Positions 8,859 through 31,430 of a DNA stretch of 64,000 nt are shown piece by piece; within the stretch, counting starts at the first letter, position 1, and each line of letters begins with the position of its first letter. The position numbers and the translations under genes were made by a program. The notes beneath the pieces were generated by a model that was given only the letters and a program-made list of their open reading frames with translations, had not been told where the DNA came from and made no database searches. The stretch comes from an uncultured Gammaproteobacteria bacterium (GTDB lineage Bacteria; Patescibacteriota; Patescibacteriia; SG8-24), in the NCBI GenBank assembly GCA_964407925.1, contig CAYOXM010000003.1, forward strand, positions 5,023 through 69,022, in the 5' to 3' direction.

Positions 8859-10130
8859 TTACCCTTCGAGATATTTCCTGCCGCGGAGGCGATCGGGGAG
8901 GTATTCCTGGTCGACCGGGCCCTCCGCGTCGGGATTATAGACGTACCCTTTTCCGTAACCGAGCTGTTTCATCAGCTTCGTCGGGGCATTTCGGATGTGG
9001 TGCGGCACGGGATCGTTCGGGGACTCGGCGATGTCGCGCCTCACTTCGCCGTATCCGGCGTACAACGCGTTCGATTTCGGCGCGTGGGCGAGGTAGACGA
9101 CGGCCTGCGCGAGGATGACGTCGCATTCGGGCATCCCGAGCAGGTGCGTCGCCTGGAATGCGGCCACGGCCTGCACCAGCGCCTGCGGATCGGCGAGACC
9201 GACGTCCTCGGACGCGAACCGCACGAGCCGCCGCGCGACGTAGAGCGGCTGCTCGCCCGCCTCGAGCATCCGCCCGAGCCAGTAGAGCGCCGCGTCGGCG
9301 TCGGAGCCGCGCATGCTCTTGTGCAGCGCGGAGATCGCGTTGAAATGCTCCTCACCGGACTTGTCGTAGAGGAGCGACGAACGCTTGAGCATTTTCGCGA
9401 CATCTTCGCGCCGCAAGTGTACCACGGGACCGGCGGCCCCGTCGACGCGGCCGGAGACCGCCTTCACGGCGAGTTCGAGCGCGTTAAGCGCCGCCCGCGC
9501 GTCCCCGTCGGCCGCCTCCGCCACGGCGCCGAGCGCGTCCCCGTCGGCCTCGACGCCGAACGAACCGAGCCCGCGCGTAACGTCGCCCATCGCCCTTGCC
9601 AGCACGACCGCGATCTCGGCCGCCTCGAGCTTCTTGAGCACGTAGACGCGGCTTCGGGAAAGAAGCGCCGAATTCACCTCGAACGACGGGTTCTCGGTCG
9701 TCGCGCCGATGAGCGTCACCGTCCCGTCCTCGACGTACGGCAGGAACGCGTCCTGCTGGGCCTTGTTCCAGCGGTGGATCTCGTCGACGAAGACGATCGT
9801 CCGCGTGGCATGGAGCTTGAGCCTGTCCTCGGCCTCTTTAACCGTCTCGCGCAGGTCCGCGACGCCGCTCGACACCGCGCTCAGCGCGACGAACCTCGAC
9901 CGCGTCATGCGCGCGACGATGCGCGCGAGCGTCGTTTTCCCGGTCCCCGGCGGACCCCAGAGGATCATCGACGGCACCTCGTCGCGCTCAAGCAGGCCGC
10001 GTAACATGCCGCCCGGACCGACGACGTCCGCCTGTCCCACGAACTCGTCGAGCGATTCCGGCCGCATCCGGTCGGCGAGCGGCGCTTCCTTCTTCAGCTG
10101 CTTTTCGGCCTTGTAGGCGAAGAGGTCCAT
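8859..10130 (-). CDS. rarA: replication-associated recombination protein A (RarA/MgsA AAA+ ATPase)
   Basis: RMRPESLDEFVGQ, GPPGTGKTTLA and FVDEIHRWNK motifs. Confidence 0.9.
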   Translation of the reverse strand: MDLFAYKAEKQLKKEAPLADRMRPESLDEFVGQADVVGPGGMLRGLLERDEVPSMILWGPPGTGKTTLARIVARMTRSRFVALSAVSSGVADLRETVKEAEDRLKLHATRTIVFVDEIHRWNKAQQDAFLPYVEDGTVTLIGATTENPSFEVNSALLSRSRVYVLKKLEAAEIAVVLARAMGDVTRGLGSFGVEADGDALGAVAEAADGDARAALNALELAVKAVSGRVDGAAGPVVHLRREDVAKMLKRSSLLYDKSGEEHFNAISALHKSMRGSDADAALYWLGRMLEAGEQPLYVARRLVRFASEDVGLADPQALVQAVAAFQATHLLGMPECDVILAQAVVYLAHAPKSNALYAGYGEVRRDIAESPNDPVPHHIRNAPTKLMKQLGYGKGYVYNPDAEGPVDQEYLPDRLRGRKYLEG

Positions 10131-10662: not shown

Positions 10663-11844
10663 ATGACCGATCGTCGTTCTTTGAAACGCCCTACGTCGCG
10701 CCTTCCCCTTCGGCAATGCCTGAACGCGGACGCGCGGCTCGCCCTGCTCCGCGAGGACGGCCATGACGCCGACCTGCCGGGACCGCTCGCGGGATGCGAC
10801 GCCGCCGAACGCTTCATCGAAAACGCCGTCGGCGCGTTCCCCGTGCCGCTCGGAATTGCCACGAACTTCGTCGTGAACGGCGAGGAACGTCTCGTCGCCA
10901 TGGCGACCGAGGAACGCTCGGTCGTCGCTGCCGCGTCGTACGCCGCGAAGCTCTGCAGGGACACCGGCGGTTTCACGGTCGAGGTCGGACCGAACGTCGC
11001 CCGCGGGCAAATCCTGTTCGTGTCGTCGTCGTTCGGCGACGGCAGGGACGACGAAATCACGCTCCAGTGCCGCCGGATCGCCGAGGCGCTCGACCGCGAG
11101 GAACGGGCGCGTCGGCCGTCGCACTGCTCGCTCGCTGCCGACCCGTTCGCCCACTCGGTGGGCGCGCGCTGGCTCGACGGCGGCGTCGGCAGGCCGCACA
11201 TGCTGGTCGTCGACTTCCAGATGGACGTCGCCGACGCGATGGGCGCGAACGTCGTCACGCGCTTCGGCGAAAAGCTCGCGGCGCGCCTCAGGTCGCTGCT
11301 CGGCCTCCGCCGGACGGCGGTCATCTGCTCGAACGACCTCGCGTACCTGAACGGATCGGCCGTCAAGGCGACGGCGACGTGGCCGGTCGCGGCCGTCGGC
11401 GAACGCATCGCGGAAACGGTGGTGCGGCTGCAGCGGTGGGCGGAAAGCGACGGCTTCCGCGCCGTGACGCACAACAAGGGCGTCATGAACGGGGTCAGCG
11501 CCGTCGCGCTCGCCACGGGACAGGACGTCCGCGCCATCGAGGCGGCGGCGCACGCGGCCGCGGCGCACGAGGCGATGCCCTACGCGCAAAGCAAACCGCT
11601 CACGAAGTACGCGCTCGTCGGCAACGGCCTCGTCGGGACGCTCGCGCTCCGCGTGCCGCTCGGCACGGTGGGCGGCGCGACCGCGCACCCGATGGCAGCA
11701 TGGTGCCGACGGCTCATGGGCATCGAAAACGCGCGCGACCTCGCCGCGACCATCGCGGCCGCAGGCCTCGCGCAAAACTTCGCGGCGCTGCGCACGCTCG
11801 CCGACGAAGGCATTCCCGAGGCCCACGAACGCCTCAAACGGTGA
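10663..11844 (+). CDS. hydroxymethylglutaryl-CoA reductase, class II-type catalytic domain
   Basis: ENAVGAFPVPLGIATNFVVNGEERLVAMATEE, DAMGANVVT and THNKGVMNGVSAVALATGQDVRA match the class II HMGR signatures. GAGGAG lies upstream of the ATG. Confidence 0.75.
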   Translation: MTDRRSLKRPTSRLPLRQCLNADARLALLREDGHDADLPGPLAGCDAAERFIENAVGAFPVPLGIATNFVVNGEERLVAMATEERSVVAAASYAAKLCRDTGGFTVEVGPNVARGQILFVSSSFGDGRDDEITLQCRRIAEALDREERARRPSHCSLAADPFAHSVGARWLDGGVGRPHMLVVDFQMDVADAMGANVVTRFGEKLAARLRSLLGLRRTAVICSNDLAYLNGSAVKATATWPVAAVGERIAETVVRLQRWAESDGFRAVTHNKGVMNGVSAVALATGQDVRAIEAAAHAAAAHEAMPYAQSKPLTKYALVGNGLVGTLALRVPLGTVGGATAHPMAAWCRRLMGIENARDLAATIAAAGLAQNFAALRTLADEGIPEAHERLKR

Positions 11845-11924: not shown

Positions 11925-12470
11925 ATGACGACCGACACCGAGACGATCACGCGCCCTTTTCGCACCATCGGCTTCGTCGCCGCGCTCGCAGCCGCGGCCG
12001 CGGCAGGAGTGACCGCCGGCTGGCTGCTCAAACCCGACCGCGCGAGGACCGAAACCGTCGCCCCGACGCGCGACGGTTCGCCCGGGGCGATTGCCGAACG
12101 CAACGCCGTCTGGCGCGTCTTGAACGGCAAGGACGCCGACGTGCCCGACGGTCCGGCCAAATCGCTCGGCTTCGCGCTCAAGGCCGCGCTCGACAAGGAT
12201 TCGCCGGTGCCGCTCCGCGACCGCGCGATGGGCGCGCTCATGAACAAGAGCGTGCTCTACTTCACCCCGGACGAAATCGACGAGGTAATGGGCGTGATGG
12301 TCGAAGGCGCCCCCGATGACCGCGCCGACGTCCTCCGCCGCATCCTCGCCGCCGACGACCGCGCGTGCGCTTTCGTCCGCGGCATCCTCGCCGACAAGCG
12401 GCGCATCGCGCTGTTTGCGGCCGGAAAACAAATTCCGCTCGAGACGCTTCCCGACGGCACGACGCCCTGA
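11925..12470 (+). CDS. membrane-anchored hypothetical protein
   Basis: GGAGG precedes the ATG at 11925, which is in frame with track ORF 10794..12470. There is one N-terminal TM segment. Confidence 0.45.
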   Translation: MTTDTETITRPFRTIGFVAALAAAAAAGVTAGWLLKPDRARTETVAPTRDGSPGAIAERNAVWRVLNGKDADVPDGPAKSLGFALKAALDKDSPVPLRDRAMGALMNKSVLYFTPDEIDEVMGVMVEGAPDDRADVLRRILAADDRACAFVRGILADKRRIALFAAGKQIPLETLPDGTTP

Positions 12471-12471
12471 C

Positions 12472-12502
12472 CTCGCCGCCCCTTCCGGGCGGTTTTTTTA
12501 TG
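12472..12502 (+). terminator. rho-independent terminator GCCGCCCC-TTCC-GGGCGGT followed by T7
   Basis: Read directly from the sequence. Confidence 0.6.
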
Positions 12503-12534
12503 CAAAAACATCCGCTTTCGGCGGATGTTCCTGA

Positions 12535-12554
12535 TGGTCGGGGCGACAGGGATT
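12535..12554 (-). repeat. exact 20-bp direct duplicate of the tRNA-Pro 3' end (TGGTCGGGGCGACAGGGATT)
   Basis: Identical to 12731..12750. A rearranged inverted copy, CCCCGACCCAATCCCTGTCGC, lies at 12671..12691. Confidence 0.7.
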
Positions 12555-12730
12555 TCACTGCTCGCCTCCGCCTCCTCGCACTGGGCTGCGGGGCGGGCTG
12601 CGCTCGCGGGAACCTTCGGGTTCCCGCGGACCCTCCTCGAAATGCGGAAACCTCCCGGTTTCCGCCCCTTCCCCGACCCAATCCCTGTCGCAACAAAAAA
12701 AGTTCCCCACCATCGGTGAGAAACTTTTTT

Positions 12731-12805
12731 TGGTCGGGGCGACAGGGATTGAACCTGCGGCCTCTCGGTCCCGAACCGAGCGCACTACCACTGTGCTACG
12801 CCCCG
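12731..12805 (-). tRNA. tRNA-Pro (anticodon CGG), CCA encoded
   Basis: Reverse complement folds as acceptor CGGGGCG/CGCCCCG, D-arm GCAC-AGTGGTA-GTGC, anticodon stem CTCGG/CCGAG with loop TTCGGGA, and T-arm GCAGG-TTCAATC-CCTGT, ending ACCA. It closely resembles E. coli tRNA-Pro(CGG). Confidence 0.85.
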
Positions 12806-12877
12806 ATGAGCGAATACTGAACGCGGTTGAGGATAACGCATCCCCCGTTTTTCTTCAAGTGTCCCGCGCGAGGAAAG

Positions 12878-12904
12878 GAAAACCGCCCGAGAGGGGCGGT
12901 CAAA
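12878..12904 (-). terminator. hairpin ACCGCCCC-TCTC-GGGGCGGT with a T-run on the minus strand
   Basis: Read directly from the sequence, just 3' of the gene ending at 12908. Confidence 0.5.
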
Positions 12905-12907
12905 AGC

Positions 12908-13531
12908 TCACGCGACGATGGCGATCATCGTCTCCGGTTCCGCCTTGCGCCGTCCGAGGACGGCGGTCTTGGCGAAGAGGCGAAGGAGCGGGCGGAGTCG
13001 TTCGGCGTTCTCGGCGTCGCCGACGGCGACGAAACCGAGGAAATGCACCGAGGTCGCGAGGAGTCCCGCGCGGACGCTCAACCGCAGGCGCTGGCCGATG
13101 TCGTCCCAGCGGTTCTCCTCGAACGCGTGCCACAGCGGCTCGCCGAGCGTCTCCCAGAACACGGTCTGCATCCGGTCATATGCCGAAGCGCCCATGCGCG
13201 CGGAAAGCGCCCCGGAAAAACGGCCGCACACGGACGATCGGAGTTCCTCGCCGAGGTCGCCCTCGACCTGGCCCCAGTACGCGTCACGGTCGGCGGCGCC
13301 GTCCGCGAGCGAGACGAACGCGACGTCATCGGGCGCGCGTCCGACGGCGGCTCCCACGGCGGAACGGACGTCGTCCTTCCGCATGGCATTCGCGGGCGCG
13401 AGGTCGAAGAAGCCGTTATCGGCCTTCCGGCACAAGGGTTCGATCAGTTCGATTTCAGACCGCACCAGTTTGGCGCGGCTTCCGGACATGCCGATAAGGA
13501 AAGCCTTGAGCGAATGACGATCTGACAGCAT
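12908..13531 (-). CDS. hypothetical protein
   Basis: Internal Met (MLSDRHSLKAF...) of track ORF 12908..13615. AGGA lies upstream of the ATG. Confidence 0.45.
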   Translation of the reverse strand: MLSDRHSLKAFLIGMSGSRAKLVRSEIELIEPLCRKADNGFFDLAPANAMRKDDVRSAVGAAVGRAPDDVAFVSLADGAADRDAYWGQVEGDLGEELRSSVCGRFSGALSARMGASAYDRMQTVFWETLGEPLWHAFEENRWDDIGQRLRLSVRAGLLATSVHFLGFVAVGDAENAERLRPLLRLFAKTAVLGRRKAEPETMIAIVA

Positions 13532-28046: not shown

Positions 28047-31253
<3,207 letters not shown>

Positions 31254-31430
31254 GGGTGAAAAATTTTTCGAAAAATTGCTGGTGTAGAGTAGCGCGGGTT
31301 CTCACCATGAGCAACCCTCCTTATCCACAACTAATTGTGTCTGTTAGTCCGAGTATACCACAAGATGTTGTGTTGCTTGTGGATAACCCTCCGTACAAAA
31401 AACGACACAAATTTACGCCTTCATCGAGCG
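31254..31430 (-). promoter_or_regulatory. nrdJ upstream region: DnaA-box-like 9-mers, extended -10, and an AT palindrome in the 5'UTR
   Basis: TTATCCACA at 31321 and TTGTGGATAA at 31377 are inverted. A degenerate TATACCACA sits at 31354. On the nrdJ sense strand this gives TG-G-TATACT (extended -10). AATTTTTCGAAAAATT lies at 31263-31278. Confidence 0.45.

Follow-up and report, generated by a model that had tools for sequence, protein, structure and literature searches.

The window, that is, the whole 64-kb stretch of DNA analysed here, contains an intact tRNA-Pro(CGG) gene with an encoded CCA on the minus strand (12731–12805). ARAGORN and Rfam (tRNA, 68.1 bits) both identify the gene and agree that its 3' end is at 12731. 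This tRNA is almost invariant across the compared lineages (related loci are numbered with L), and the copy in the window is 100% identical to the tRNA of L082 and L087. The neighbouring genes encode a 181-aa protein, a 207-aa protein, and HMG-CoA reductase; no Pfam family is found for the 181-aa and 207-aa proteins. An earlier note on this DNA had described an exact 20-bp duplicate of the tRNA 3' end, and the duplicate is indeed there. The sequence TGGTCGGGGCGACAGGGATT, the plus-strand form of the last 20 nt of the tRNA, is present at 12731–12750 and again at 12535–12554, on the same strand. The proximal, attL-like copy is inside the tRNA and the other is the distal, attR-like copy, both in the minus-strand sense of the gene. 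Their spacing is 196 bp from start to start, with 176 bp between the copies. The block of identity, in direct orientation, extends from AATC in the T-loop (TTCAATC) through CCA. A third copy is not found in the 64-kb window even at 3 mismatches, and the chance expectation of the 20-mer is 0 (100 shuffles). The 20-mer is seen in 2 copies in the window, at 7 loci in the metagenome collection and in 0 viral contigs, and the concern that it might be simple GC-rich repetition common throughout the genome does not apply.

The whole insertion, here called E1, corresponds to 12555–12750. Its removal recreates the arrangement of a related locus, L099, and the cut may be placed anywhere within the 20-bp repeat with the same result. 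In the tRNA-sense direction, the insert opens with an A-run, a 17-bp hairpin and a U-run (12692–12730, minus strand, inverted repeat I2), seen in the folds, with G-U pairs solely on the tRNA-sense strand. This hairpin is the predicted new intrinsic terminator of tRNA-Pro(CGG). GTT follows on the minus strand, between the hairpin and 12691. Next comes an inverted copy, X, on the minus strand (12680–12691, inverted repeats I4 and I6), which is GCGACAGGGATT on the tRNA-sense strand and AATCCCTGTCGC as listed. X is the reverse complement of tRNA positions 56–67. A second inverted piece, Y (12671–12678, minus strand, I14), is GGTCGGGG on the tRNA-sense strand and CCCCGACC as listed, and is complementary to CCCCGACC of the acceptor/CCA end of the tRNA. 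One G separates X and Y, and their order is swapped relative to the tRNA end; the rearranged inverted copy pointed out previously is real. X can pair with the distal repeat in a 12-bp closing stem, 12543–12554 with 12680–12691 (I6, I11), in agreement with the proposed pairing of the ends. Alternatively, X can pair with the tRNA's own 3' part over 13 bp (12739–12751). Y is confined to the window, directly beside X, and is not conserved in L095, the locus with a homologous element. The region of Y (12671–12679) offers an alternative 8-bp closing stem, which is used by the minimum-energy fold of the antisense strand. An H-type pseudoknot formed by both inverted pieces was considered and dropped, being sterically implausible, with the second piece unconserved.

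The interior of E1 (12555–12670) consists of three hairpin arms in the folds: arm 1 at about 12639–12671, supported also by pair counts, arm 2 at 12605–12628, and arm 3 at about 12560–12600. Both perfect hairpins listed in the earlier note exist, CGCGGGAACC-TTCG-GGTTCCCGCG at 12605–12628 and GCGGAAACC-TCCC-GGTTTCCGC at 12644–12665, the latter within arm 1. The insert is gene-less as described, with no ORF in the 176 bp and no ORF content in the interior. On the other side of the distal repeat, the original tRNA trailer is found on the minus strand (12504–12534). It is composed of TCAGG, the hairpin CATCCGC-CGAAA-GCGGATG and a T-run, and is 85–90% identical to the trailers of relatives. Beyond this second hairpin/T-run lies the terminator of the convergent 181-aa gene (12475–12493). 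Only this last one was called by the terminator scan; the structures at 12692–12730 and 12504–12530 were identified from folds. E1 is bracketed in both directions by terminator-like structures of a hairpin and a T-run. The minus-strand position of the tRNA, the hairpin at 12692–12730, and the hairpin/T-run at 12504–12530 had all been missing from the earlier description.

The segment is far more stable than shuffled sequences, with z = −8.3 for the tRNA-sense strand and −7.8 for its complement. Both known E1 copies, in the window and in L095, fold as a four-way junction, made of three arms and the 12-bp closing stem, with a tail of 8 nt, CCCGACCA. In the two copies, the fold energies of the tRNA-sense and the opposite strand are −127.7 versus −117.7 and −140.3 versus −121.5 kcal/mol; for the cores alone, they are −87.3 versus −83.0 and −92.3 versus −83.4. 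For arm 3 of the window, pairing is better on the strand opposite to the tRNA sense. The motif GSGGRAAC is seen at 12606, 12620, 12644, and 12658, or 4 times in 60 bp, versus 30 times in the whole 64 kb. In L095 there are 3 in 58 bp versus 5 in 11 kb. Because one of the L095 copies sits in a loop, the motif itself appears to be conserved, beyond hairpin pairing alone. A promoter scan found no sigma-70-like promoter for E1.

Contigs of relatives were fetched via protein homologues of both neighbour genes. L099 encodes a 180-aa protein 78% identical to the 181-aa protein of the window. The order and orientation of the genes are as in the window: HMG-CoA reductase, the 180-aa gene, the opposite-strand tRNA-Pro, and the 207-aa gene. 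L099 has one 20-mer, and exactly 196 bp of the window are missing from it. To the right, 58 of 60 nt match the window beyond 12750, and in a global alignment the left flank of L099 aligns with the window left of 12535, including the trailer hairpin. The alternative pairings of the L099 and window flanks fail. Judged by these alignments, L099 is a clean and exact empty site, and the window carries 196 bp more than it does. Other relatives give independent evidence. Positions 12503–12554 of the window are 85–90% identical to the tRNA trailer and 3' end of L089 and L081, and no counterpart of 12555–12730 is found in L081, L082, L088, or L089. As the left flank of the distal 20-mer matches the trailers of relatives while 12555–12730 lacks a counterpart, the distal copy with its hairpin and T-run (12504–12554) is, on this comparison, the ancestral tRNA end and terminator, displaced from its original place. 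The attL/attR-type integration signature recognised earlier is strongly supported by the L099 empty site and by the ancestral trailer left of the distal copy. The converse expectation, that all relatives would show the same arrangement with no variation, does not hold, since they differ at this site. E1 is present at 2 of 11 distinct tRNA-Pro(CGG) loci (the window and L095) and absent from the other nine. Among 43 tRNAs checked, partial direct copies outside tRNA arrays are seen solely at tRNA-Pro(CGG) of the window, L094, and L095.

Relatives fall into two gene layouts at this locus. The tRNA is antiparallel to the HMG-CoA reductase gene in the window, L099, and L095. In L081, L089, L082, and L088, the segment with the tRNA has the reverse orientation, and a small gene separates the tRNA 3' end from the 207-aa gene. 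In the window, the terminators of the 181-aa gene (12476–12496) and of the 207-aa gene (12879–12899) are mutual 21-bp inverted repeats, 90% complementary, and the two layouts suggest a possible inversion between these terminator repeats. In the closest relative, L090 (95% amino acid identity for the 207-aa protein), the small gene adjoins the 207-aa gene and the contig ends before any tRNA. This variable small gene (72–114 aa) has no Pfam match and differs in orientation beside the tRNA-Pro of relatives (L081:10866–11180; L089:2531–2875; L088:5175–5453; L082:11602–11820 and 10711–11454; L094:620–940; L090:760–1011). It is missing in the window, L099, and L095. L082 additionally has a 247-aa gene next to tRNA-Pro. 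The class II ribonucleotide reductase of L082 (L082:1–4251) carries an intein with Intein_splicing and LAGLIDADG domains; a Pfam scan finds no intein domain in that of the window (28047–31301, 1084 aa). L093 is a 1.5-kb metagenome contig with 12 tRNA genes (L093:1–1552), and its tRNA-Pro(TGG) has at its end the 20-mer of the window's tRNA-Pro(CGG).

L095, a 67.7-kb metagenome contig located by a scan with the 20-mer, carries E1 at the same tRNA-Pro. After the tRNA come a 40-nt spacer, a 37-nt tRNA 3' fragment, and an element collinear with E1. The element is composed of a terminator-like hairpin, GTT, an identical GCGACAGGGATT, three arms, GTGA, a 20-nt fragment, and a terminator. The boundaries are common to the window and L095: CCA/hairpin on one side and GTGA/AATCC on the other. 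The flanking proteins are only 19% and 34% identical between the two loci, and the flanking non-coding DNA is unalignable (z 0.5 and −0.6). The two hosts are very distant. The terminator hairpin, by comparison, is identical at 32 of 40 nt (z 7.4) and the interior at 81 of 125 nt (z 4.2).

Arm 1 has the same offset and the same geometry in both copies: 4 bp, an internal loop, 9 bp, and a tetraloop. Compared position by position, its 13 pairs include 6 with double changes, 2 with single changes and 0 broken, values reached by 6 of 500 shuffles, in a comparison of two sequences from which the structure itself was derived. Under a sequence-based shift of 1 nt, the double changes drop to about 3. 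G-U pairs of arm 1 are found on the tRNA-sense strand only. MAFFT with RNAalifold applied to the two elements mis-registered arms 2 and 3.

The tRNA of L095 is surrounded by a tandem array (L095:9371–9447 and 9523–9760). On the 3' side are the 37-nt 3' fragment, which extends from the anticodon stem to CCA, and the 40-nt spacer. On the 5' side are a displaced 5' fragment (positions 1–32) and about 100 nt, behind an apparent promoter, which puts the intact tRNA about 220 nt downstream of the likely transcription start. The 37-nt fragment followed by E1 with its 20-nt fragment is what repeated integration would give. The displaced 5' fragment bears a second small structured element of about 85–90 nt, E2, related to but distinct from E1. 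E2 is found at L094:1436–1523 and 1215–1298, L095:9655–9745 (minus strand), and L096:880–960. Its three hairpins retain their pairing despite sequence changes, and it contains a CTTAG loop and a conserved block, TCGYCGAG. It is located in the 5' part or leader of tRNA-Pro(CGG) copies, with partial 5' tRNA duplications, and is always preceded by GTA (tRNA position 9 or 20) and followed by GTAG. Rfam contains no match to E2, and the window lacks the element. In L094, 1.7 kb of whose 19-kb contig was seen, a second tRNA-Pro-like copy (L094:1417–1610) follows downstream, past the native tRNA and the terminator of that tRNA. This copy is degenerate, with two mismatches in the acceptor stem and E2 in the D-loop. 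It is followed by a hairpin closely resembling 12692–12730 of the window, without the remaining E1 in the 1.7 kb.

Further copies of E1, a parent element, and a recombinase were searched for. There is no other E1 copy in the 64 kb, and the homologue at the same tRNA in L095 is the answer to the suggestion in the earlier note that further copies be looked for. The Rfam comparison suggested there leaves E1 without an Rfam family. Only the tRNA is credible, in 12300–13000 at E values up to 10 and across the window at the gathering score. Weak Rfam lines (miRNA, CRISPR-DR, permuted-tmRNA) merely reflect the long hairpin made of the tRNA end, the terminator and the inverted copy. Viral, phage, and plasmid collections gave 0 matches to the 20-mer, the swapped junction, or the whole element, and no larger parent element carrying E1 arms was found in viral contigs, phages, or plasmids. 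Two viral matches, L100 and L101, are regarded as chance, being situated in coding DNA away from any tRNA. No integrase, transposase, or reverse transcriptase is found among the 30 largest ORFs of the window. These ORFs are housekeeping genes, such as MscL, Mur ligase, PBP, MgsA, HMG-CoA reductase, M50 protease, DsbD, VKOR, NifU, HtrA, class II ribonucleotide reductase, aspartate kinase, CCA-adding enzyme, and ZnuABC. Mur ligase, PBP, and MscL mark the DNA as bacterial. Five proteins of the window (four translated ORFs and the identical protein P0007) had no hit in exact-protein comparisons. A box-II regular expression, a weak test, detected no integrase in any examined locus. Searching genome contigs with HMG-CoA reductase yielded homologues of about 40% identity in unrelated phyla and no gain in synteny. 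Several known kinds of element were dropped as candidates: a retron (no reverse transcriptase), IS200/IS605 or TnpB (no hairpin-end/guide layout and no gene), a homing spacer of CAST (no Tn7 or Cas genes), and a split or permuted tRNA (the tRNA is intact).

Our best explanation, to which we would give an even chance, is that E1 is a miniature, gene-less, non-autonomous integrative element flanked by att sites, effectively a bare attP, which is moved in trans. Within this explanation, the comparison of loci establishes the insertion, its exact boundaries, and the presence of a homologue elsewhere. E1 would have recombined site-specifically with tRNA-Pro(CGG) between the T-loop and CCA. The tRNA would have been rebuilt by the 20-nt end that E1 brought along, and the first 39 bp of E1 would have become the new terminator, while the original 3' end and terminator were displaced 196 bp downstream. 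A tyrosine-type integrase encoded elsewhere, by a parent element or by the host, might move it. Such an integrase could bind at the 20-bp core, at the inverted core copy inside E1, and at the clustered GSGGRAAC motifs. Spread by a second route can also be speculated, namely DNA uptake followed by homologous recombination, because the near-invariant tRNA and the 20-mer provide flanking homology and could serve as the arms. What the internal inverted copy might do, and any gain for the host, are conjecture. A clean site-specific polymorphism, identical boundaries in two very distant hosts, and much better conservation than in the non-coding DNA around it suggest that E1 as a unit has been gained, or precisely lost, repeatedly.

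Mobility is argued here from presence and absence and from relative conservation, in two copies, and slippage between the 20-bp repeats could also produce empty sites by loss. The same observations might be explained by an inert scar, in which a prophage or island of normal size at tRNA-Pro was mostly deleted and two arm ends remain, immobile and doing nothing except terminating the tRNA. The att-type repeat and the empty site would fit any integrase-mediated event, no genes are left, no integrase is nearby, and the 40-nt spacer of L095 with its 37-nt fragment does resemble a plain scar. Independent decay, however, predicts different breakpoints, and in the window and L095 the two boundaries coincide, as does the whole internal architecture. 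At 19–34% identity of flanking proteins, neutral DNA would be randomised, as the flanks are (z about 0), whereas E1 retains z of 4–7, and its hairpin pairing is kept through double changes. Vertical descent of a scar would demand repeated precise losses in the closer relatives L099, L081, L089, L082, and L088. We consider the inert scar unlikely. Of the three options left by the earlier note, the remnant of an integrative element stands in its integration part; random decay is the least likely of the three, because the homologue in a very distant genome has the same boundaries and architecture. The MITE-like option describes correctly something small, gene-less, and present or absent among relatives, and E1 is also rich in hairpins with a perfect 12-bp inverted repeat. 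Its mechanism, a transposase acting on tRNA-derived inverted repeats as in MITEs or REP-type repeats, does not suit the locus. On the tRNA side, the inverted repeat stops short of the end, with 39 bp of hairpin beyond it, and the duplication is 20 bp of one specific site rather than a short target-site duplication. E1 occurs once in the 64 kb, its two known copies occupy the same tRNA, and the 30 largest ORFs of the window contain no transposase; such an origin is highly improbable. An artefact of assembly or chance is practically negligible. Short repeats can mislead assemblers, yet the 20-mer has a chance expectation of zero, the 176 bp between the copies are unique, and the diverged homologue comes from an independent assembly of another sample.

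The third option, a small structured RNA, could coexist with mobility. Here, E1 would be primarily a structured non-coding RNA gene on the tRNA-sense strand, delivered by integration, with a cloverleaf-like four-way junction, the 12-bp stem, and the tRNA-identical tail CCCGACCA. Read-through from the tRNA promoter would produce it, and its 3' end would mature as that of the tRNA does. The strong fold speaks for this, with a very low energy in both copies that is lower still on the tRNA-sense strand, as do the exclusively tRNA-sense G-U pairs of arm 1, its identical geometry and offset with 6 of 13 pairs doubly changed, 2 singly and none broken, and the terminator after the tail. The location between terminators and the promoter-less state speak against it: the RNA would start 3 nt past a strong terminator hairpin, and the promoter scan detected no promoter-like site. 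Rfam yields no match up to E = 10, the better pairing of arm 3 in the window is on the opposite strand, and in L095 one conserved motif copy is in a loop. The covariation count is weak, coming from two sequences with the structure derived from them, and is about 3 double changes if the copies are aligned by sequence. Taken together, the bracketing terminators, the promoter-less state, and the GSGGRAAC clusters lean toward sites acting at the DNA level, and the stability of the tRNA-sense fold and the strand-specific G-U pairs of arm 1 lean toward an expressed RNA. We regard the RNA gene as quite unlikely. Even so, the arm pairing kept through double changes, together with the tRNA-sense G-U pairs of arm 1, would fit a role as RNA or single strand no worse than one as binding sites for proteins, which counts against our preferred reading. 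A further idea, which we consider very unlikely, is a new class of protein-less tRNA-homing elements. The inverted target copy GCGACAGGGATT would act as a guide or fold-back, and a host enzyme would insert the element. A single-stranded DNA or RNA would then rebuild a duplex image of the T-arm/acceptor site, with no dedicated integrase ever involved, and E2 (L094–L096) would be a second member of a wider set of structured elements in tRNA genes.

If E1 is truly mobile, it would be the smallest parasite of an integrase system, one that is nothing other than its attachment site, and the counterpart of a MITE in the integrase world. Under the miniature attP model, a larger helper element might carry the junction ...GTGA-AATCCCTGTCGCCCCGACCA-AAAAAAGTT... 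beside an integrase gene. The pair of the window and L095 also provides a concrete test of whether conserved hairpins of attP arms act as DNA sites or as RNA. Att-flanked units of 0.2 kb, such as E1, are invisible to finders of tRNA islands, because these require an integrase gene and a minimum length, as in the filters of Islander (PMC4383910). Such units can rewire the 3' flanks of tRNA genes, with new terminators and with displaced fragments that are mis-called as tRNA genes (PMC9897764). With E1, tRNA-Pro(CGG) stands out as a recombination hot spot in an uncultured, high-GC lineage about which little is known.

Islands and prophages that target tRNA genes, with att sites of tyrosine integrases, were reportedly treated by Williams in 2002. 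In islands of tRNA genes, the regenerated gene and the displaced 3' fragment as direct repeats are the standard signature of integration (PMC4383910; PMC9897764), and the attP site is in the T-stem region in 1836 of 3919 listed islands (PMC4383910). Similar to these islands, E1 splits the 3' part of the tRNA and restores the gene, direct repeats mark its ends, and its identity block begins at the canonical T-loop/T-stem sublocation. L095 shows a tandem array at one tRNA, and also a 37-nt block from the anticodon stem. Unlike the islands, E1 has 176 bp between the repeats, no integrase, and no gene at all, and it contains an internal inverted copy of the core and conserved hairpin arms; its parent element was not found in the collections searched. 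In its att repeats, its empty site, and its sublocation, E1 agrees with a tRNA island, and it lacks the integrase that defines one. MITEs and REP-type miniature repeats have been reviewed (PMC10969869). E1 resembles them in being miniature, non-coding, strongly folding, and non-autonomous, and is different in its site specificity for one tRNA, its 20-bp duplication, its non-terminal inverted repeat, and its single copy in the available DNA.

Two further systems share the use of folded nucleic acid. Integron attC sites and the attP of CTX phage, which integrates at dif, are integrated as folded single strands or via host recombinases. A single-stranded E1 would likewise fold back into a duplex attachment site, and it is recombinase-less. 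Its target is a tRNA gene, not attI or dif, and Xer, IntI, or a single-strand stage is without support here. The bridge RNA of IS110 is a structured non-coding segment of about 180 nt with stretches complementary to its own target, which has a 2-nt core. E1 is also structured, of similar size, and carries target-complementary stretches; unlike IS110, it has a 20-bp duplication, no Rfam match, and no adjacent DEDD/RuvC-like recombinase.

Cis-mobilizable elements (CIMEs) are kilobase-scale elements with cargo genes, described mainly in streptococci. They derive from ICEs or IMEs, are flanked by att sites without recombination genes, and are thought to be mobilised by an integrase in trans (PMC5704250). 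E1 similarly has two perfect 20-bp att repeats and no genes for recombination or transfer. Going by this size of CIMEs, E1, at about 0.2 kb, would be an order of magnitude smaller; it is free of cargo, and it resides in a high-GC bacterium known only from metagenomes. In concept, the CIME is the nearest known relation of E1.
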